Shown here piece after piece: positions 638 through 17,502 of a DNA stretch of 64,000 nt. The notes under the pieces are model-generated. The model was not told where the DNA came from. It made no database searches and was given only the letters and a program-made list of their open reading frames with translations. Position 1 is the first letter of the stretch. Each line of letters starts with the position of its first letter. The translations under genes and the position numbers were made by a program. Where the stretch lies: positions 1 through 64,000 of the forward strand of contig JAEOSZ010000095.1 of NCBI GenBank assembly GCA_016840095.1. Reading direction: 5' to 3'. This stretch comes from Candidatus Heimdallarchaeota archaeon. GTDB taxonomy: Archaea > Asgardarchaeota > Heimdallarchaeia > Heimdallarchaeales > Heimdallarchaeaceae.

Positions 638-2067
638 ATGGGAGGTCCTTTTTCTAGTTTTCTTCTGATTTGTCTTGCTACTTCTCCCCAACTTGATGGA
701 AAAGGTTTCACTTCTTTCAGAGTCAAGAATAAGAAACTTGTTACAAATCTCCCAACAGCTACAACTGCAAATGAAATGATTACTGCGAGTCTTAAAGTAT
801 CTTTTGTAACAACTTGGCCTATAATGTTGTGAGTAGATATGTTAAAAGATGTACTAACTGCTAAAATGTTGGTATTTACTAGGTAAGATAAACTTTCAGA
901 ATTCAACATCATCTCACTCATTTGTGTTAGATATCCTCCTGTTAAAGCTCCTAAGAACAAAGCAATACCTGTTAACATATTATATATACCAAAATACATT
1001 CCACCTTCTTTTTGTGGAATTATGTCCAATAAATACGCTTGTATGCTTGGTGTTCCAATAAACATGAAAAGAGCAACTATATAATGAATTAAGTAAAGAT
1101 GCCATACTTCAGTTGCAAAAATATAAGCAACAGGAAAAATAGCTAGAATTAGTTTATTAGAAAACATCAATTTAGTTCTCCCAAATCGATCACTTAGTTT
1201 TGCTCCAAATCGAATAACTATTAGAATTGTAACACTGAATGATATTGAAAGAATTGCTACTTCTAAAGCATTAGCACCTAGAACATTAACCTGGAATATG
1301 CTGAAAAGAGGCCAAGCAAATGAGAAGAAAAGAGACTGAATAACAGAGATTAAAGTGAATTTTCTAAAAGCCTGGTTTTCAAAAGCAATCTTGAAACTTT
1401 CTGTTAATTTGTGAGGAATTGGTTGTTCTTCCTTATCCAAATTTTGAAGTGGTTCTTCTACTTTTTTGAAAGGTAAAACTCCTAGGATTGAAAGTAAAAC
1501 ACCAATAAAAACAGGAATTAGAATGTAGGTATGATAATCTTCATCTTTGAATATACTAGATAATATTATCCCTGTGAGAATTGTTGCTAAAGCGCTTCCA
1601 ATTGCATCAAACCAGAATATTCTTCCAGTTAATTTTCCTCTAACTTCTCTTGGAAAAAGCTCATTTTGAAGTGCAGTCCAAGCAGGGAGTCCAAGGCTTA
1701 ACAGTAGATTAACTAAAGCTACAACAACAACAATGGTCCATGAAAAATCAGGTTTAATAAAATACAGGAAAGCATAGGGAATACCCCAAGCAATTGTTGA
1801 AATAATTATGAATGGTTTTCTTTTCTTTACGATATCGGAAAGTCTTCCGAAAAAAGGACTTAGAAATGTGCTAAGAAGGTTAGAAATACTTTGTATCCAT
1901 CCAAGCAAACCTGAACTTGCTCCCATAGTGAGAGCAATCATTGAGACAAAAGGTTGCACTAGTCCCCTAGAGGTACTCATGGCAATTGTTCGAGAATAAA
2001 GAGCAAGTTTCTCACTTTTCTTAATATCTCGAGTCTTATGTTTGTCTAGAAAAACCTTATCACTCAT
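634..2067 (-). CDS. MFS transporter
   Basis: About 12 TM helices. Motifs GRLSDIVKKRK and AKLSDRFGR; ELFPREVRGK loop. Confidence 0.9.
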   Translation of the reverse strand: MSDKVFLDKHKTRDIKKSEKLALYSRTIAMSTSRGLVQPFVSMIALTMGASSGLLGWIQSISNLLSTFLSPFFGRLSDIVKKRKPFIIISTIAWGIPYAFLYFIKPDFSWTIVVVVALVNLLLSLGLPAWTALQNELFPREVRGKLTGRIFWFDAIGSALATILTGIILSSIFKDEDYHTYILIPVFIGVLLSILGVLPFKKVEEPLQNLDKEEQPIPHKLTESFKIAFENQAFRKFTLISVIQSLFFSFAWPLFSIFQVNVLGANALEVAILSISFSVTILIVIRFGAKLSDRFGRTKLMFSNKLILAIFPVAYIFATEVWHLYLIHYIVALFMFIGTPSIQAYLLDIIPQKEGGMYFGIYNMLTGIALFLGALTGGYLTQMSEMMLNSESLSYLVNTNILAVSTSFNISTHNIIGQVVTKDTLRLAVIISFAVVAVGRFVTSFLFLTLKEVKPFPSSWGEVARQIRRKLEKGPPI

Positions 2068-9338: not shown

Positions 9339-10232
9339 TTAGCTTTCCCACAATTCTAGAATCTTAAATATTAATCCAACTCCAAAATTCAATGCTGCTT
9401 TGTTGAATAAAGTATGTCTAAATTCAACGACATCTACATATTGGGTTTTTGGTAACACAATTTGAAGTATTTCGACTACTTGATGTGGTGTTAACCCAAA
9501 GGGCTCCATTGTTGCATGTGTAGGAACATAAGCTTGATCAAATGCATCAGAATCCACACTAACATATATTCTATCAAATTTAGAAACAAATTCTGTGACT
9601 ATTTTTAGTATCTCTTTTTTATTTGAGTGAACTTCTTGAGCTGGAATATGAATTATTTCAGTTTCATCTTGAATTTTATTGTGCTCATCTATTGTTTGAG
9701 TATATGCATGCCCCCCTATGAACAACATTTGGTTTTTATTTAGTTGAAGTTTTTCTTTAAGATTAGCAAAAACAGTTCCATGAGATTGAAAAATTCCAGG
9801 AGGATATTCATCAGCAAGATCTGCATGAGCATCAAACCAAATTAAAGCTGTCTTTTCATCCCATGGAGCTTTTGAAAGAGCATCGAAGGTTATGCTGTGA
9901 TCTCCACCTAAAACTAGTAGTTTGCAGTTCTTCTTTATAGCACTATTCCAGATCTCTTGGATTTTTTCTTTTTCTTTAACTGGGTTGTAATCACCAATAT
10001 CATAATAATTTGTGTTGTTTTGAGATATGTTAAAGGTTGTTGAAATCCCACTAAACTCTAAAGATTTCTTCCTTAAGGCTTTAGGAGCTTTTCTCGAACC
10101 TCTTTTATTTGCCTTGATTCTTTCGTATGGTAATCCAAATAGAATAAGAGTGTTATTTTCCTCAAAACTATTTAAAGAGTCATAAGATTTCTTGAAGAAT
10201 CCTAAGAATGTCCTTTTCATTTTCTTCTTCAA
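9339..10232 (-). CDS. Arginase/agmatinase (ureohydrolase) family
   Basis: GGDHSIT, DAHAD, SHG, SVDSDAFD, EPFG. Confidence 0.88.
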   Translation of the reverse strand: MKKKMKRTFLGFFKKSYDSLNSFEENNTLILFGLPYERIKANKRGSRKAPKALRKKSLEFSGISTTFNISQNNTNYYDIGDYNPVKEKEKIQEIWNSAIKKNCKLLVLGGDHSITFDALSKAPWDEKTALIWFDAHADLADEYPPGIFQSHGTVFANLKEKLQLNKNQMLFIGGHAYTQTIDEHNKIQDETEIIHIPAQEVHSNKKEILKIVTEFVSKFDRIYVSVDSDAFDQAYVPTHATMEPFGLTPHQVVEILQIVLPKTQYVDVVEFRHTLFNKAALNFGVGLIFKILELWES

Positions 10233-10263
10233 ATTATTTTTAGGAAATAAAATTATTTTGTTA

Positions 10264-12894
10264 TCACTGTTCCTTAAGATAATAGTCTGGAGAAGTTACA
10301 AATCTGCTATCATCATCTGCATCTCCAACTTCAATATCTGTAATAATCTCATCCATAATCTCTTCATCACTTATATCTGCAAGAATCTTACGTTTATCAA
10401 CAGAGATAATTCTACTCAATTCAATAGTTTTAGGCTTGAATTTCTCCATGGTTTCTTCCATTTGAATAAGATTCTTAATTTTCCCAATGAGATTCATAAA
10501 GGTCATTACAATATCTGGTCTAAGAGCAACTTGAGGGGCTATACTTAGTTGTTTACCAATAGAAATTGCCAAATTATCAATGAAATTCTGATCTTTTTCA
10601 AATAATGAAGCTGGATATTCACTAATAAATGAAGCAATTAGAAGTAGATCAATTGAAGTCCAAAGATAAAGGAATGGTTTTTCTGTTAACTGTAAATTGT
10701 AAACAACTCCTATCTCAGTTCCTTTAACATTTTCAACTACTTTCCCTTCTAAATCAAATACATCATTTAATTCAAAAGATGGTGATCCATAACTTACTTG
10801 AATCATATTTCCTATTTGTCTAACATTGCCCATTGAAAATAAGAGGAATCTAGAATTTTCAACTTTTTCAGGAAGGAATCCAGTATTTTTCTCTATAAGA
10901 ATTCTTTTCAACATATCAATATCGTCTATTTCATCTTCAGTTCTTGAATACTCCTCTGCAAAATCCTCTAGTACTTTTTTCTTCTTCTCTGAAAGAGATA
11001 ATTTTGTTCTTGAAATAAGTGGTTGGTTGTGAACATCATGAAGGAAATCATAAATTATACCAAAAAATTCACTTGAAGCTTTTTTCTTCTCTACAACAAG
11101 GAAGTAGCCCTTCATTGGATGGTAAATAACAGAGTGGGCTCTTCCTAAAGGCTTACCAAAAACATTTCTAGCAGCTATATTCTCCTCTTCTGTAATTCTA
11201 TCATTTATCAAATTACTTTCAGCTGGATTGAAATATGGAAGAACATCTCCATTTTGGATGATATCTTGGCTCTTAATTCTTATTTCTCTTGCAGTTTTAT
11301 CCAGTTTTTCCAAAGATACAAAAAGGTAATTGTGAGGTTGGAGTATAATTTCTATAATTTCTTCAGTTAGTGGTATATCTTTAATTTTGCAATATTCAAC
11401 GATTGCTTCAGGAATCAGATATGTGAAAGGTAATTGTGGAATATTTCTCGGAAGTTCATTGAGTAAGAATTCTTTCTTTTCTCTTTCATTACTTAATTCA
11501 GGTTCTTTACTTATTGGTAAAACAATGTTATCATAGATTCTTCTGACCATAGAAAGAGATAATTCTTGTTGTTGTCGAATTATAATTCCAAACTTTTCAT
11601 TTAATTGTCCGGGTCCTACGACAAAACCCACCAAATCTTTTTGTTCATCTACAACAGGTTTTCCGGAATATCTCCAAAGAGCTTTCAGTTCTGATAATAG
11701 TTGATAATCTATCTCTCGACTTGCAGCACTAGTTGCAACAGTTAGTTGATTTCTGAATTGAAGAGCACTGATTATTTCACTATATTTTTGAATGCGATTT
11801 TCTGTATCAAGTGTTAGATCCTTGAAATAAGGTGTTATAATCTCTTGAAATTGGAGATGTTCTCCATAGATAACATCCAACGCATCAAGATCTTTGGCAT
11901 AATCATTAATATCTTCATCTAAGAGTTCTTCATAGATTTCGAGTTGTTTGATTTTTCTAGCTAACTCATCACTTTGAATAGAGGGAATTCTTCCTTCATT
12001 GTTCTCCATAAATATTCTGAACTTTTCCCTTTCCTGTTGAATAATTACTTTCCATTTTAAGGTATCTTGAGCTGCTTTTCTAAGGATTGGTCTGTGTCTT
12101 AGCACTCTTTCGTTTATATCATAGATTATACCTTTCAATTCCTTTTTATCAGTAACAAGTCTTCTCAATCTGTTGATATTTTCACTCAATTCGTTGTTAA
12201 ATAAGAGAAAATTATTGTGAGTGTTTTTATATAAATGATCTTGGCTGACAGAAAATAGCAGCTCTGATAATTTGTAAAAGTGCTGAAAGATTTTATGCTG
12301 TTTGGCTTCAACTTCATTCTTCTTTCCCATGTATTCTTGATCATCGATTTTGCTGGACATATAATCTTGTTCGAGATCCATTTCTTCTTCGAAAGTCTTA
12401 GTTGCTGCTTTAATAGCCATATTCATTACATAACGAATCTTTAATTCTTCTATTTCAATAGGAGGAATTTCTTCTAACTCAATTATAGGCAGTTCTATTT
12501 CCTCAGATATTTCAGGTTTAGGAGGAAGAACAACTACTTCTTTAGCTTCTTCTTTTACCTCTTCTTTTACCTCTTCTTTAATTTCCTCTACTTCTTTTTC
12601 TACCATAATAGGAGATGTATCAGACTCCAATTCAATAGGAGTAGTTAACTCTCCTTTTTGAATCTGATGAAAATCTAGTTCAACTTCAGGTAATTTCTGT
12701 TTTGTTTCTTCCAGTTCTTTTTCTTCAATCTCAGCATCAATAGTTTTAGGAAGATTAGCTAGAAGCTCTTTATACTTATTTTTCAAAGTTTGATAGGTTC
12801 TTCTATCAATTGAACCTCGTATGTAACGTAAATCTAAATCTCGAATAAAACGGAGAATTCGTCTTCGTTTAACGCTTACCTCATCGTCTAACAT
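10264..12894 (-). CDS. Large coiled-coil protein with CdvA/SHOCT-like helical motifs and three PRC-barrel-like repeats
   Basis: LDLRYIRGSIDRRTY and LEQDYMSSKIDDQEY motifs; long coiled coil; YSGKPVVDEQKDLVGFV, AARNVFGKPLGRA, LEGKVVENVKGTEIGVV. Confidence 0.55.
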   Translation of the reverse strand: MLDDEVSVKRRRILRFIRDLDLRYIRGSIDRRTYQTLKNKYKELLANLPKTIDAEIEEKELEETKQKLPEVELDFHQIQKGELTTPIELESDTSPIMVEKEVEEIKEEVKEEVKEEAKEVVVLPPKPEISEEIELPIIELEEIPPIEIEELKIRYVMNMAIKAATKTFEEEMDLEQDYMSSKIDDQEYMGKKNEVEAKQHKIFQHFYKLSELLFSVSQDHLYKNTHNNFLLFNNELSENINRLRRLVTDKKELKGIIYDINERVLRHRPILRKAAQDTLKWKVIIQQEREKFRIFMENNEGRIPSIQSDELARKIKQLEIYEELLDEDINDYAKDLDALDVIYGEHLQFQEIITPYFKDLTLDTENRIQKYSEIISALQFRNQLTVATSAASREIDYQLLSELKALWRYSGKPVVDEQKDLVGFVVGPGQLNEKFGIIIRQQQELSLSMVRRIYDNIVLPISKEPELSNEREKKEFLLNELPRNIPQLPFTYLIPEAIVEYCKIKDIPLTEEIIEIILQPHNYLFVSLEKLDKTAREIRIKSQDIIQNGDVLPYFNPAESNLINDRITEEENIAARNVFGKPLGRAHSVIYHPMKGYFLVVEKKKASSEFFGIIYDFLHDVHNQPLISRTKLSLSEKKKKVLEDFAEEYSRTEDEIDDIDMLKRILIEKNTGFLPEKVENSRFLLFSMGNVRQIGNMIQVSYGSPSFELNDVFDLEGKVVENVKGTEIGVVYNLQLTEKPFLYLWTSIDLLLIASFISEYPASLFEKDQNFIDNLAISIGKQLSIAPQVALRPDIVMTFMNLIGKIKNLIQMEETMEKFKPKTIELSRIISVDKRKILADISDEEIMDEIITDIEVGDADDDSRFVTSPDYYLKEQ

Positions 12895-13047
12895 TATTAA
12901 TAGAAAATAATATGGTACCTATTCAAATATGTTCCTAAATTGCCCATTTTAAAAAATATATAAGGTACTAGAAAAATGGGATATTACCCAAAGAAAAACG
13001 TTTAATAGATTATTGGGGAAAATACATTAAGAAATGGTGAAATTATC

Positions 13048-13407
13048 ATGAGTTTTCAAGACGATGTTGCAGTAGCAGCTCAAGAAGGTACCGTTGGAGT
13101 AGTATGGTTGATTGGGGATGATTTGAAATGTTATTATCAATATGGCGATTGGGCTGTAGACCCTACTATACCGTTTAATGCATGGAAAAATCAGACTCAA
13201 AATGTTGACTTTGGTGGGGGATTAAAATTTACAGTTATTACAATGACACCAGAAAGATTGTGCACTACAAATCTGGGTGGTCAAGGACATATAATGGTTG
13301 CTCGTTGTCCACACTGGGCAGGATGTGTTATTACTTGGTCTCCATCTACAGTAGAGAATAGAATTGCTTATGCGACTGCAGCTAAACTTGCTGCTAAAGT
13401 AGCCTGA
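13048..13407 (+). CDS. Asgard-type profilin
   Basis: 119 aa. Q.GDW, GLKFTVITMTPERLCTTNLGGQGHIMVARCP resembles the Asgard profilin pattern G.KY.I...T.ER...TN..G.GH.....P. GGTGA Shine-Dalgarno upstream. Confidence 0.8.
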   Translation: MSFQDDVAVAAQEGTVGVVWLIGDDLKCYYQYGDWAVDPTIPFNAWKNQTQNVDFGGGLKFTVITMTPERLCTTNLGGQGHIMVARCPHWAGCVITWSPSTVENRIAYATAAKLAAKVA

Positions 13408-13428: not shown

Positions 13429-13731
13429 TTGATTTCACATCCCTCTATTGAAATTAGGAACGATGAAATCTTTTTATCAATTAGAGCTCACCCAAACTCG
13501 TCAACCAACAAGATAGAAGTTACAGAATTTTCAATAGATATTTATGTAAAAGAATCTGCAAACAAAGGGAAGGCAAACAAATCTATTCTAGCACTAATAT
13601 CTAAAACTTATAAGATTCCATCTACTTCACTCTCAATTTCTCGAGGATTAAAATCAAGAAATAAAATTATAGTTTTAAAGAATCAAGAAAAAGATTTGTT
13701 TTTAGAGAAAGTATTTGGTAAGGACATTTAG
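13429..13731 (+). CDS. DUF167/YggU family protein
   Basis: HPNS...I, V.E.ANKGKAN, GLKSRNK. Confidence 0.85.
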   Translation: MISHPSIEIRNDEIFLSIRAHPNSSTNKIEVTEFSIDIYVKESANKGKANKSILALISKTYKIPSTSLSISRGLKSRNKIIVLKNQEKDLFLEKVFGKDI

Positions 13732-14294
13732 AGTTTCATTTTTTCAAATGCTCTAATAAGTTCATTTCTTTCGATAAATCTATTATGAACGCTACTACTC
13801 AAATTCATTAAAGTTGCTATACTTGTTTCTACAGTATCTAGCATCATTTCTTCCAGCTTTACTTTAACATCTAGTATTTTATCCTTAAGTTCCTCAGCAT
13901 TATCAAGTATGTCTATTTCTAGTAGGTAAAGAATTGAAAGATCAATTCCATGTTCTCCTTCTACGTCCTTTACATCAAAAAATGTACTGTATTTATAATC
14001 CGTCTTTGAAGCTTCTTTTCTCATATCTGAGATGGTTTTCATAACAATTCCTGCTGGACCCCAGCTTGTTAACAGTTGTGAATGAATTAGAAGTTCATGA
14101 ACTTGGCTCATCATATCGCCTGTGTTCCTCATTATGGTAAGTAATCTTGTTCTGAATGCAATATCAGAATCTCTTCTATGCTCTAAATCTTTGTACCCAT
14201 GGTAGTTTTCAATGTTAGAATTAAGAATTTTGAGTGCCTCACTAGGTCTTTTTGAAACTTCTTTTTCAGTCATATCCTTTTTCTTACCAAACAT
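13728..14294 (-). CDS. Conserved helical hypothetical protein
   Basis: I..Y.GY...E.RR.SD..FR N-terminal pattern, Y..FFD, helical bundle. Confidence 0.6.
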   Translation of the reverse strand: MFGKKKDMTEKEVSKRPSEALKILNSNIENYHGYKDLEHRRDSDIAFRTRLLTIMRNTGDMMSQVHELLIHSQLLTSWGPAGIVMKTISDMRKEASKTDYKYSTFFDVKDVEGEHGIDLSILYLLEIDILDNAEELKDKILDVKVKLEEMMLDTVETSIATLMNLSSSVHNRFIERNELIRAFEKMKL

Positions 14295-14316
14295 ATGCTT
14301 TCACAATTAAATTATT

Positions 14317-16089
14317 TTATTGATTTAAATAGATTGTGCGTATTTCGTCGTTTGTAGTAGCTTGCTCAGGTGCTTTATCGTCAACTATTTTACCTGTAAA
14401 TCTTGGAAATCGCAGTGCTAATCCTTCTAAATCACTTTCCATTAAGCCTCTTGAACAAGTATGTAGTTGACTCCTGGTAATTTCATCTCCAGTTACTTCA
14501 ATAACTATCTTAGGATTAAACCAAATACTGCTCTCAATATCGCTTTGAAACTCTTTTGGTTTATCTCTCTCGAAAGGTTTGAGTTCCTTAAAGAAGAAAT
14601 CAAGATCTTCATCTGAAAATCCTGTACCTATTTTAGTAAAGGTTTGATATACACCTTCAATCTCATCATAACAACCTAAGAGAAAAGCACCATATTTTCC
14701 GGCTCTTTTTCCCTTACCATATTCTGCCCCCATAATAACTAAATCAAAGGAATCAGAAAGTTGGGCATCATATCCAGCTTTGTACTTTACCCAATTCCAA
14801 CCTCTTGCACCAGCTTGATAAACAGAATCTTTTCCAACACTTTTACCCATTATCCCCTCACAACTGTCTTTAATTGCTTGATGAAAGAAATCATCAATTT
14901 CATCTGCGTTTTCTGCAATTGTTTGATGTGAAAATTTTATTTCCTTAGATTCTTCGATTATTTCTTTTAGATTTTCTCTTCTTTCAAGATAAGGAGAATC
15001 TAATTTGGATTTGGAGTCACTATATAGAACATCAAAAAGATAAACCCTAACGGGGACTTCAGCTATCTTCTGATCAATATCATGCTTTCTTTTTCTTTGA
15101 GATACATGTTGAAAAGGTAATATGGATTCTTTATCATGATCAAAAGCAACAATTTCTCCTTCAATAATAAATTCGTCATCTAACGAAGAATCATTGATAA
15201 ACTCAATCACATCAGGAAATTGATTAGTTATGTTTTCGGTACTTCTAGAGAATAATTTTACATCCTTATTCTTCTTATGGATTTGAACTCTTAACCCATC
15301 ATACTTGTACTCTAGGGCGCATGTTCCTTTAAATCTTTCAAGTAATTCTTCTGAACTAGAAACCCTTTGAGCAAGCATAACCTTAATTGGACTAAACAAT
15401 TTTACTTCAACTTGCTTAACTGCTTCAAGACCTTTAGCAAATAAGGTGGTTGAAACATATTCAATATCTGAGCATCTATTATAAGCTCTTTCCAGAAACT
15501 CTTTATTTTCTCTGTTACCAGTTTTAGCTTTTGATAGTGCTTCAAGTAATAACTGTGCAGCTACACCTGTTCGCAAGTTTCCAGCTATTAGTCTAGAAAT
15601 ATATCTTGCTTCCAAAGATGTTACCTTTGATAGTAATCCAGACAGGAATCTTATTTTCTTATCTGATGAACCTTCTCCAGTGGTTTTAGCTATATTATCA
15701 AGTATTCCCCAAATTTCTTGAACTTCATACTGCTCTATTTCTTGTTGATTCGTAAAAGCAAGCAAAGTTGACTGTGTTTTATTTTCTAAAAGCTTATGTG
15801 CAGCCTTTCCTAAGTCTCCTGTCTCATCTAATAAGTTTTGAACAGATTTTTCACTTTTACCTGTTGCTAATGCTAAAGCCTTGGTAGCCATTTTCTCAGC
15901 TAACATTAGTTCAATTCCTACAAAATCAGGGTACAGTTTACCAAGAGTTAAAAGGGAGATTTTTCCTATTTCCTTTTCATTTGCCTTTGCTAGAGTTTCA
16001 GCTAAGATGTCAACCATTTCTAGCTTCTTCTGAGTATTCTCTAATCTAAAATAGCACTGACACAAATCCTTAAACTTCACCTTAATCAA
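14317..16089 (-). CDS. lig: ATP-dependent DNA ligase (archaeal/eukaryotic type I-like)
   Basis: EYKYDGLRVQIH, EGEIV, FDVLY, EGIMGK, WVKYK, DLVIMGA..GKGKR, LRFPRF. Confidence 0.97.
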   Translation of the reverse strand: MIKVKFKDLCQCYFRLENTQKKLEMVDILAETLAKANEKEIGKISLLTLGKLYPDFVGIELMLAEKMATKALALATGKSEKSVQNLLDETGDLGKAAHKLLENKTQSTLLAFTNQQEIEQYEVQEIWGILDNIAKTTGEGSSDKKIRFLSGLLSKVTSLEARYISRLIAGNLRTGVAAQLLLEALSKAKTGNRENKEFLERAYNRCSDIEYVSTTLFAKGLEAVKQVEVKLFSPIKVMLAQRVSSSEELLERFKGTCALEYKYDGLRVQIHKKNKDVKLFSRSTENITNQFPDVIEFINDSSLDDEFIIEGEIVAFDHDKESILPFQHVSQRKRKHDIDQKIAEVPVRVYLFDVLYSDSKSKLDSPYLERRENLKEIIEESKEIKFSHQTIAENADEIDDFFHQAIKDSCEGIMGKSVGKDSVYQAGARGWNWVKYKAGYDAQLSDSFDLVIMGAEYGKGKRAGKYGAFLLGCYDEIEGVYQTFTKIGTGFSDEDLDFFFKELKPFERDKPKEFQSDIESSIWFNPKIVIEVTGDEITRSQLHTCSRGLMESDLEGLALRFPRFTGKIVDDKAPEQATTNDEIRTIYLNQ

Positions 16090-16095
16090 ACCTTA

Positions 16096-17502
16096 TTATC
16101 TTTTCTTACCTCGTTGTTCCTTCATTTCAAGAACTATTTCACTTATAAGATGAATGAGATTTGCACTTAACACATCGAGACTATTTTTAAGCTCTCGCAC
16201 TGCTTGAGTTAGACTCTCTATTTGCTGTGATTGAATAGCTGGTTGAGCCACTGGTTGAACATCAGGTTCTACCTGTAATTCCTGGTCAAAAAGCATGATA
16301 TCCTTTTCAAATTGATCCATTTCTGGAGTTCTAGGTTCAGGTATTGATGTTATATCACCTTTAACGGCACCCTTTACAGATTCTTTACGTTTTTGTTTCT
16401 TCTTCTTATCTCGGTCTTCTTTCTCACGAATTCTTTCTAAATATGGCAGTATTTGTGCATAATCAATTCCTTCTCTTCTGGCCATATCAGTCAGAAGGAT
16501 ATCTCTATATCCAGGGTCTTCAATTTTAAGTTCATCAATATCTTTTTCTAATTCTTGAATAATAGCAATTGATTCATAGACATTTTTTACAGGAGCTTTA
16601 ATCTCTTCTTCCTTTTCAACACTCTTAGTTGCTCTGACTTCGTCTTTAAGAGTCTTCATGGCTTTCATAACTTCTGCTTTTACTGTATCAGTTTCACCTT
16701 TGTTCAAAGCTTCCTTAACCATATCAATTTTACTTACAGATTCGAAAGGTTCTTCTCTAGCTTGTTCTTTTACTTGAATTGTTTCTTCTATCTCTTCATC
16801 CAACTCTTCTTCTTGCTTAGTAAACATCGGAGGTGCAGCTATATGCTGAAACAGACTCTTAGCAAATTTAGCATTATCTCGCAAATCTATACCTGACTTT
16901 GAATCAGACAACATTGAGTAAGAACCACAAGCAAAAACTGTTCCTAGACCATACGAGGTTATCCCCATGATTGCTGAACTTGGGGGATCACTAGTGCTCT
17001 TAGTTCTTGCTAGCTCTTCTACTCCTTCTTGAAGATGTAGAGAACAGCTTGAAACAATTGTTAATTCTTTAATACTTTTGGTAATTGGGTGGTCGTAAAA
17101 TTTTGATACAATTACATTGCTTTCCAATTCTAAATCAAAGTTTTGATAATCAAAGATTTGATTTGCTAAAATCTCTATATTGAAATGTTTGAGTAGAGTA
17201 TTCAAATTTGTGTTTAATCCTTTATCTCCACCTGCATTAGTAAAAATTGCTAATGATCCTCCCTCATCAACAAATCTTAGCAAGGACTTAACCTCATGCC
17301 CCATAATCTTTGATCCATCTGGGCATAAGAATACAAATATATCATACTTTGATATGTTAGTGTATTTTATTGGATAGGAGTCATGTTTGCTAATTTCATG
17401 ACCTTCTTCTTCAAGAATACTTGCTAGTTTCTGAAAATTCTCAAAAATCTTTCCTCTCTCTTTTTGAGTTTCATCGAATAATATCTTCATATGTTCACCC
17501 AA
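16096..17502 (-). CDS. IFT52/GIFT (GldG-like, DUF4350) domain protein with acidic coiled-coil C-terminus
   Basis: KILFDETQKE, FVFLCP..K....EVKSLLRFVDEGGSL....AGGD....TNLN.LL..F.I, HPITK, G.G.VFACGS. No signal peptide. Confidence 0.7.
   Translation of the reverse strand: MGEHMKILFDETQKERGKIFENFQKLASILEEEGHEISKHDSYPIKYTNISKYDIFVFLCPDGSKIMGHEVKSLLRFVDEGGSLAIFTNAGGDKGLNTNLNTLLKHFNIEILANQIFDYQNFDLELESNVIVSKFYDHPITKSIKELTIVSSCSLHLQEGVEELARTKSTSDPPSSAIMGITSYGLGTVFACGSYSMLSDSKSGIDLRDNAKFAKSLFQHIAAPPMFTKQEEELDEEIEETIQVKEQAREEPFESVSKIDMVKEALNKGETDTVKAEVMKAMKTLKDEVRATKSVEKEEEIKAPVKNVYESIAIIQELEKDIDELKIEDPGYRDILLTDMARREGIDYAQILPYLERIREKEDRDKKKKQKRKESVKGAVKGDITSIPEPRTPEMDQFEKDIMLFDQELQVEPDVQPVAQPAIQSQQIESLTQAVRELKNSLDVLSANLIHLISEIVLEMKEQRGKKR

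Follow-up and report, generated by a model that had tools for sequence, protein, structure and literature searches.

What does the 876-codon open reading frame (ORF) next to the profilin gene of a Heimdallarchaeal contig encode, and what might its product do? The window that we analyzed comprises positions 1-64,000 of the forward strand of contig JAEOSZ010000095.1 (assembly GCA_016840095.1, Candidatus Heimdallarchaeota archaeon), and the gene in question (P0001) occupies 10264..12894 on the minus strand, as one open frame of 876 codons plus a stop. A previous inspection of these letters, which we call the sequence-only reading, had described the product as a permuted and expanded CdvA-like protein bearing three PRC-barrel-like units.

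A search of 5.8 billion proteins returned 42 relatives at 39-90% identity, nearly all of them 830-900 residues long; those with a name were invariably labelled hypothetical proteins of Heimdallarchaeota or Heimdallarchaeaceae. The own-family alignment (A1) was colinear end to end, with a mean column identity of 59%, and the own-family profile had one match in the genome, meaning that the gene is present in single copy. Judging from its conservation, the ORF is a real, conserved gene. The protein had been presumed undescribed, and so it proved: the family has no Pfam model, and in the literature that we searched there was no paper describing it, nor one linking PRC barrels with profilin. We conclude that the product (below, the triple-PRC protein) is a cytoplasmic, multi-domain member of an undescribed Asgard-specific family.

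Predicted architecture and reach of the family

The full-length AlphaFold model (predicted local distance difference test score, pLDDT, 76) and a second model, of residues 396-706 alone (pLDDT 90.6; predicted template-modelling score, pTM, 0.84), lay the protein out as a hairpin, a linker, a helical bundle of ~250 residues, three repeats of ~150 residues and a tail with a terminal peptide:

12757..12888, minus strand: N-terminal basic alpha-hairpin (residues 3-46), holding motif 1 (Y-I-R-G-S-I-D-x3-Y)
12502..12756, minus strand: acidic, proline-containing disordered linker (residues 47-131), pLDDT <50 for residues 82-131
11710..12501, minus strand: conserved helical bundle (residues 132-395) of the AlphaFold model, with motif 2 at the tip of its first hairpin
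11260..11709, minus strand: repeat unit 1 (residues 396-545), a PRC barrel with a helical insert dividing it (residues ~445-520, nucleotides 11335-11562)
10780..11229, minus strand: repeat unit 2 (residues 556-705), a PRC barrel with a degenerate first motif and an insert at residues ~606-682 (nucleotides 10849-11079)
10360..10776, minus strand: repeat unit 3 (residues 707-845), of the three PRC barrels the most canonical (G-K-V-V-E-N-V-K-G-T-E-I-G), with an insert at residues ~748-820 (nucleotides 10435-10653)
10267..10359, minus strand: acidic disordered tail (residues 846-876), pLDDT <50 for residues 849-876

The assignment of the repeats rests on fold comparisons. When the model of residues 396-706 was aligned exhaustively against 48,161 representative solved chains, nine chains reached Z>=5, and eight of these were PRC barrels. 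Unit 1 matched RimM (2dyi, Z 7.8; 3h9n, Z 7.5), 3htr (Z 6.3), 1pm3 (Z 6.0) and reaction-centre H (8yy9_H, Z 5.9), whereas unit 2 matched the A. fulgidus PRC pair (8onw_H, Z 6.4), the PRC domain of CdvA (9s9g_A residues 4-73, Z 5.8) and RimM (7cq1, Z 5.4). The alignments of these two units covered 64-72 residues on targets of 68-90, that is, nearly the whole target domain. Unit 3 could be superposed on RimM 2f1l with a Z of 9.0 and a root-mean-square deviation (rmsd) of 1.6 Å over 61 aligned residues, its other matches being 3h9n (Z 8.3), 8onw_A (Z 7.6) and 1pm3 (Z 7.3). Foldseek ranked the A. fulgidus CdpB1/CdpB2 complex (8qzo) on top for both models, at a weak E of 0.015-0.027. Shape searches of the ESM Atlas gave weak matches (template-modelling score 0.20-0.34), mostly to PRC-barrel, RimM or MgtE_N clusters, and in the feature search all scores were under 0.8. 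The three PRC-barrel units that the sequence-only reading had proposed are thus borne out, with PRC barrels at the top of the fold searches for each of them.

In the barrel alignments, the ~60-70 aligned residues were spread over a span of ~135-150, implying that a helical insert of ~75 residues interrupts each barrel. This insert had been overlooked, and it is the real signature of the family. In the models, each unit consists of three strands, four to five helices and again three strands, in the same order in all three; the insert (4-5 helices, ~70-80 residues) follows strand 3 of the barrel. As modelled, all three units adopt the fold of the PRC superfamily (PF05239), but not as a contiguous domain of ~80 residues, so the predicted split barrel is a variant of that fold.

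At the level of sequence, the Pfam PRC profile scored 13.9 bits on unit 3 (E 0.055, profile positions 7-33; cut-off 21.2 bits), did not match units 1 and 2, and found nothing at E<=0.01 in the whole genome. Given that the profile is interrupted by the insert, a sub-threshold score is to be expected. Scanned against Pfam, the whole protein, eight segments and 15 homologues yielded nothing above any cut-off, the family profile had no match among PDB sequences, and an exhaustive phmmer search of 1.84 billion representatives returned 12 matches.

The repeats were also compared with one another by hhalign, on an alignment that included distant relatives. Units 1 and 2 aligned in register over 127 columns (probability 94%, E 9.5e-8), and both aligned in register with unit 3 (E 0.0025 for unit 1, 0.013 for unit 2). 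By this measure, the three units are true homologous repeats, insert included. A motif of roughly K-K-x2-L-x3-I-x3-L-x-I-P-x3-A-L-x-P is common to the inserts, and together with the homology of the units it implies that the insert is older than the triplication. Individual units have marks of their own, such as the invariant H592-P593 of unit 2 and the A-P-Q-x-A-L-R-P motif in the insert of unit 3.

When the PDB was searched with a profile of 15 inserts, there was no match. Since that search was empty and insert-only fold matches remained at Z<=4, we dropped a helix-turn-helix reading of the inserts. Two of the 12 phmmer matches were TPR_10/12 proteins that repeatedly matched residues ~762-831, at 26-32% identity, a likeness that we ascribe to the helical hairpins of the unit 3 insert and not to homology.

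Both L...Y....I....Y...K motifs pointed out in the sequence-only reading are indeed there: motif 1 (L20..Y24....I29....Y34...K38) at residues 13-42, nucleotides ~12769-12858, and motif 2 (L174..Y178....I183....Y188...K192) at residues 172-194, nucleotides 12313-12381. Each sits at the turn of a predicted alpha-hairpin. The "long coiled coil" fared less well: the region is helical, but the model shows a bundle of 25-40-residue helices over residues 145-395 (145-179, 185-218, 221-244, 250-265, 268-298, 305-343 and 362-378) and no single rod. As for the G/K-x-V-x-D/N..G..(I/L/V)G units, three such stretches exist (residues ~411-427, ~575-599 and 717-731) and form the first strands of the repeat units, but only unit 3 has the pattern exactly; unit 1 keeps it loosely, and in unit 2 it is degenerate.

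The two ends of the protein differ in their reach. The N-terminal hairpin, strongly basic with 13 Arg/Lys within residues 9-42, is near-invariant in the sampled own-family homologues and recognisable in most lineages, and the linker that follows varies in length, with indels of 0-60 residues in alignment A1. The tail ends in the peptide F/Y-V-T/A-S-P-D-Y-Y-L (residues 865-873, nucleotides 10276-10302), in which V866, P869 and L873 are invariant across the same alignment; it is confined to the own family and absent from the other lineages examined.

CAP-Gly domains (6fc6, Z 5.0; 2cp6, Z 3.5) were among the weaker structural matches to unit 1. Such domains bind acidic C-terminal E-E-Y/F tails, and the acidic tail of the 876-residue protein contains D-Y-Y-L; the resemblance to CAP-Gly ligand tails is probably a coincidence.

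When searched with a profile of the own family only, 29 of the 30 other genomes of that family contained the gene, in single copy, and the protein seemed family-restricted. One weak match led to a relative of 499-615 residues. For wider genome searches we used a profile of the three-unit region that includes distant relatives (A4), which found the family in 63 of 83 Heimdallarchaeia genomes:

Own family: 29/30 genomes
Family with forms of ~655-665 residues: 20/22 genomes
Family with forms of ~1,020 residues and a ~536-residue paralogue: 12/12 genomes
Another Heimdallarchaeia family: 1/2 genomes
Three sister families of the same order: 0/16 genomes

Beyond the class, the same profile found five genomes in four other Asgard families, and none among the 135 genomes of the largest other Asgard family sampled. 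This reach beyond Heimdallarchaeaceae had escaped the sequence-only reading. Sequences examined from four Heimdallarchaeia families and from other Asgard families show the same arrangement of helical front, acidic linker and repeat units; the short paralogue has two repeat units and the other lineages have three, and the N-terminal hairpin motif is seen in most lineages, not in all. As far as these profile searches reach, the family is Asgard-only.

A putative scaffold and its candidate partners

PRC-barrel proteins have recently come to be seen as near-universal parts of archaeal division, CdpB working with FtsZ-SepF and CdvA with ESCRT-III. They were found in 509 of 524 archaeal genomes, and in haloarchaea CdpB1 is an essential PRC-barrel protein tethered by SepF (10.1101/2023.03.28.534520). 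Heimdallarchaeaceae would seem to be an exception, as the canonical Pfam profile finds nothing in 31 of 31 genomes of the family. The only PRC barrels detected so far in that family seem to be those of the triple-PRC protein, which presents them in a new form, insert-bearing, triplicated and coupled with a CdvA-like helical region. With it come a family and an insert subdomain for which Pfam has no entry.

The function to which we incline, with confidence that is evenly balanced, is that of a multivalent scaffold or adaptor, and the division or membrane-remodelling role put forward in the sequence-only reading is likewise putative. Self-association would be the task of the helical bundle, on the model of the three-helix coiled coil in CdvA filaments, and the three PRC barrels would dock partner proteins. 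Precedents for such docking are the CdpB1-SepF pair, the binding of RimM to ribosomal protein S19 and the lateral filament contacts of the CdvA barrel. The basic hairpin and the terminal peptide would serve to anchor the assembly on a polyanionic surface and to bring in a downstream factor.

If the protein is a scaffold, our tentative first choice of partner is the FtsZ-SepF divisome, for which it would be a fused functional stand-in for the stand-alone CdpB barrels. The actin-profilin system is a tentative second choice, and the rest of the probability falls to something else.

The known proteins nearest to the triple-PRC protein include CdpB1/CdpB2/CdpB3 (8qzo, 8onw), PRC-barrel division proteins of archaea that use FtsZ. 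They have the PRC fold in common with it, head the Foldseek ranking and align at Z 6.4-7.6 along almost all of the CdpB domain. Like it, they are cytoplasmic proteins of archaea, with more than one barrel acting together. CdpB proteins, however, are small, stand-alone or tandem, free of inserts and recognised by the Pfam PRC profile, whereas the triple-PRC protein fuses three split barrels, all below the Pfam cut-off, behind a helical region of ~400 residues. At 876 residues, with that helical N-terminal half, it falls outside the small stand-alone or tandem CdpB class. The genome itself encodes SepF and FtsZ, and near its SepF gene there is no small PRC-like ORF.

The distribution of canonical barrels is suggestive too. 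In the sister families without a triple-PRC protein, the canonical profile matches 12 of 16 genomes, and in one further family the genus with the triple-PRC protein is without a canonical barrel and the other genus has one. Three observations weigh against a stand-in for CdpB. Strict complementarity with canonical PRC genes had to be given up, since all 12 genomes of one family carry both and the picture in the outgroup families is mixed; the comparison involves few families, which are related to one another, leaving a small number of independent contrasts; and the Pfam PRC profile, which misses the barrels of the triple-PRC protein, could miss other divergent ones.

The profilin neighbourhood

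A conserved, single-copy gene beside the only detectable profilin is a concrete candidate for a part in division and actin-cytoskeleton organisation. The surroundings of the gene in the window are as follows:

9339..10232, minus strand: arginase-family gene (Pfam Arginase, E 4.4e-46), on the same strand as the triple-PRC gene and 31 bp downstream of it
12895..13047, no strand: head-to-head intergenic region between the gene and profilin, 153 bp, AT-rich, with TATA-like stretches facing each way, as read by eye
13048..13407, plus strand: Asgard profilin of 119 amino acids (PDB 5zza, E 3.2e-10; also 5yed, 5zzb and 7pbh)
13429..13731, plus strand: DUF167/YggU, part of the conserved block 13429..17502
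13728..14294, minus strand: 188-amino-acid protein of no known function, part of the same block
14317..16089, minus strand: ATP-dependent DNA ligase, part of the same block
16096..17502, minus strand: GIFT-domain protein, IFT52-like, part of the same block

A low-complexity ORF of 118 codons at 10192-10548 on the plus strand, antisense over the 3' end of the gene, is almost certainly no gene.

The profilin was the single match in the genome search. Distant members of the own family retain its divergent pairing with the triple-PRC gene, and profilin adjacency is seen in five family-level lineages and three relative orientations, the four further lineages having the two genes convergent (three cases) or in same-strand tandem (one case). 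The profilin link is a genuine, repeated association.

Around this pair lies an old block of arginase, the triple-PRC gene, profilin, DUF167, the ~180-amino-acid protein, DNA ligase and the GIFT-domain protein; across lineages, the neighbours comprise arginase, RidA, profilin, DUF167, DNA ligase, the GIFT protein and an M24 peptidase. In the own family arginase has a conserved position; a distant Asgard family has it on the other side of the gene. The stretch at 13429-17502 is conserved across several Asgard families in mixed orientation, at 25-45% protein identity (loci L022, L034, L048, L049 and L054). The 188-amino-acid neighbour was considered as a clue and discarded, being a member of a widespread unnamed family of ~180 residues and uninformative.

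These same data speak against a functional tie. The lineage with proteins of ~660 residues has the gene adjoining DUF167 with no profilin nearby, and families without the triple-PRC gene still keep profilin, DUF167, the ~180-amino-acid protein, the ligase and the GIFT gene together. Because it is part of a larger old block that persists without the gene, the adjacency to profilin may be historical and not functional.

A further member of the block may be a protein of ~400-425 amino acids (L055 7654-8901, L056 7262-8476, L034 4588-5865, L022 3218-4477). It stands beside profilin in two families without the triple-PRC gene, where the two copies have weak TPR/MIT-like Pfam matches, and for one of these copies weak homologues occur in other lineages, two genes upstream of the triple-PRC gene (the one scanned had no Pfam match).

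We know of no formin- or VASP-like profilin ligand in Asgard archaea, and the triple-PRC protein could be imagined in such a role, as a factor dedicated to the actin cytoskeleton, binding profilin or profilin-actin, for instance through its disordered linker, and organising filaments. We consider this unlikely. The recurrent adjacency, same-strand tandem pairs included, to what is the genome's only detectable profilin does argue for it, as does a homologue from another Heimdallarchaeia lineage (P0054; locus L021 230-2077) that is without the helical N-terminal half and is encoded directly beside a profilin gene. P0054 has a disordered N-terminal region of 160 residues with a run of seven prolines (residues 121-127), and at least one Heimdall profilin binds polyproline weakly (PMC8410842). 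Polyproline, however, is not conserved, and we rejected it as a profilin-binding feature of the family: own-family members have at most PP or PPP, and several have none. The adjacency is moreover absent in the ~660-residue lineage, the block persists without the triple-PRC gene, and the protein contains no known actin-binding fold.

The scaffold that we favor could in principle serve both partners, as a self-assembling organiser that couples the actin-profilin cytoskeleton to division or shape, with the barrels binding SepF/FtsZ and/or actin and the gene kept beside profilin for that reason. This fuller version is more doubtful still. If it is true, the closest known relatives of eukaryotes would have a lineage-specific replacement of CdpB that also provides a link to the cytoskeleton.

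Comparison with RimM, CdvA and other helical families

The highest structural scores for units 1 and 3 were against the C-terminal domain of RimM (2f1l, 2dyi and 3h9n; Z 7.5-9.0), which raises the question of whether the protein is a ribosome- or RNA-associated assembly factor with RimM-like PRC barrels. In other lineages the gene lies near those for the M24 peptidase and SUI1/eIF1, and PRC-barrel genes often neighbour translation genes (10.1101/2023.03.28.534520). We nevertheless regard this as improbable. The Z gaps among PRC families, ~1-2, do not discriminate between them; RimM is bacterial, and the triple-PRC protein has neither the RimM N-terminal domain nor a conserved ribosomal context, the translation-gene neighbours being not conserved in the own family. 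Its coiled-coil architecture of ~850 amino acids is also unlike that of known ribosome maturation factors.

According to the sequence-only reading, the protein uses the same parts as CdvA in reversed order. The solved CdvA filament subunit (9s9g_A) consists of a PRC domain together with a coiled coil of three helices, and CdvA recruits CdvB through its E3B peptide (PMC12818579). A true permuted homologue of the CdvA of Thermoproteota (PF18822, arCOG04054) would polymerise and recruit ESCRT-III through its own C-terminal peptide. In favor of this idea, the kinds of parts are the same: PRC barrel, helical bundle and flexible tail with an end peptide, the acidic tail of our protein offering an analogy to E3B. 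Moreover, in the Foldseek top 1,000 and among all 48,161 chains alike, 9s9g_A ranked first for residues 155-336 (Z 10.4, rmsd 2.9, 118 residues aligned), although for helical bundles a Z under ~13 means little, by the tool's own warning.

Faint profile matches to the N-terminal hairpin point the same way. The CdvA coiled-coil profile was the best Pfam match to residues 5-72 (16.0 bits, E 0.013; cut-off 30 bits) and, in several lineages, best or near-best among the sub-threshold matches to the hairpin, always at profile positions ~51-118 (E 0.0009-0.08). In the whole-genome search it gave the triple-PRC protein 14.3 bits, and the best score among family members was 19.7 bits.

Much stands on the other side, and we hold permuted CdvA homology to be very improbable. 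The first rank for the bundle is effectively a tie, with unrelated helical proteins next (Z 10.0 and 9.8) and hairpins, both designed ones and those of ESCRT-I, at ~9, so that the match to CdvA lies within 1 Z of unrelated folds; this weighs against reading the bundle as CdvA-derived. The resemblance of the hairpin at residues 149-218 to the ESCRT-I steadiness box (Z ~9) was set aside as non-specific for the same reason, being equalled by designed hairpins. As matches to the barrels, RimM and CdpB are no worse than the CdvA barrel, and the terminal peptide occurs in a single family. The sequence has no significant similarity to CdvA, which has one barrel without an insert where our protein, about four times larger, has three with inserts.

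The helical region (residues 3-395) precedes the barrels (396-845), the reverse of the order in CdvA, and no ESCRT-III (cdvB) or Vps4 (cdvC) gene adjoins the triple-PRC gene in any lineage examined; on these grounds, and with its profile score below the cut-off, it falls outside CdvA. What holds of the earlier comparison with CdvA is the parts list and its reversed order, and specific common descent found no support. The parts are CdvA-like, but the protein is no orthologue of CdvA.

The hairpin motif itself is shared more widely. In distant homologues, the N-terminal hairpin gave sub-threshold matches to GvpG (E 1.7e-4), CdvA (E 9e-4) and SHOCT (E 0.014, 15.6 bits). A kinship with SHOCT, which the sequence-only reading had put forward for checking, found no support in the protein itself: the SHOCT profile (PF09851, cut-off 27 bits) matched neither residues 1-60 nor 145-215, even at E<=10, and it matched one of 12 N-termini, at E 0.017. 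The likeness to SHOCT and GvpG (PF05120) lies in the pattern L..L...G-x-I-D/S-x3-Y at residues 13-42 and 172-194, but all scores are below the cut-offs, and the motif, N-terminal or internal here, is C-terminal there (G-E-I-x3-Y/F). Because GvpG, CdvA and SHOCT all match below threshold, and because the motif recurs in a Zn-ribbon coiled-coil protein of the same genome, G-x-I-D/S-x3-Y is probably a generic alpha-hairpin motif.

Least probable of all is a nucleic-acid- or chromosome-associated structural protein, for which one could cite the 13 Arg/Lys of the hairpin, the conserved linkage to DNA ligase, the helix-turn-helix look of L-x-I-P-x3-A-L-x-P in each insert and a CdvA reported, in work cited in PMC12818579, to need DNA for polymerisation, but the insert profile finds no DNA-binding protein in the PDB, the fold searches contain no helix-turn-helix or winged-helix match, and the DNA ligase block exists also without the triple-PRC gene.

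The Zn-ribbon protein deserves a separate mention. It has 279 amino acids (contig C122 16317-16634; locus L005, ORF 991-1830, plus strand), with the Zn ribbon at its N-terminus, an acidic linker and a coiled coil that ends in G-E-I-S-x2-Q-Y-E, and is the genome's best match to the CdvA coiled-coil profile (E 0.001, 20.4 bits, below the cut-off). Its layout recalls the Zn-ribbon CdvA-like proteins described in Thermoproteales (PMC11188069).

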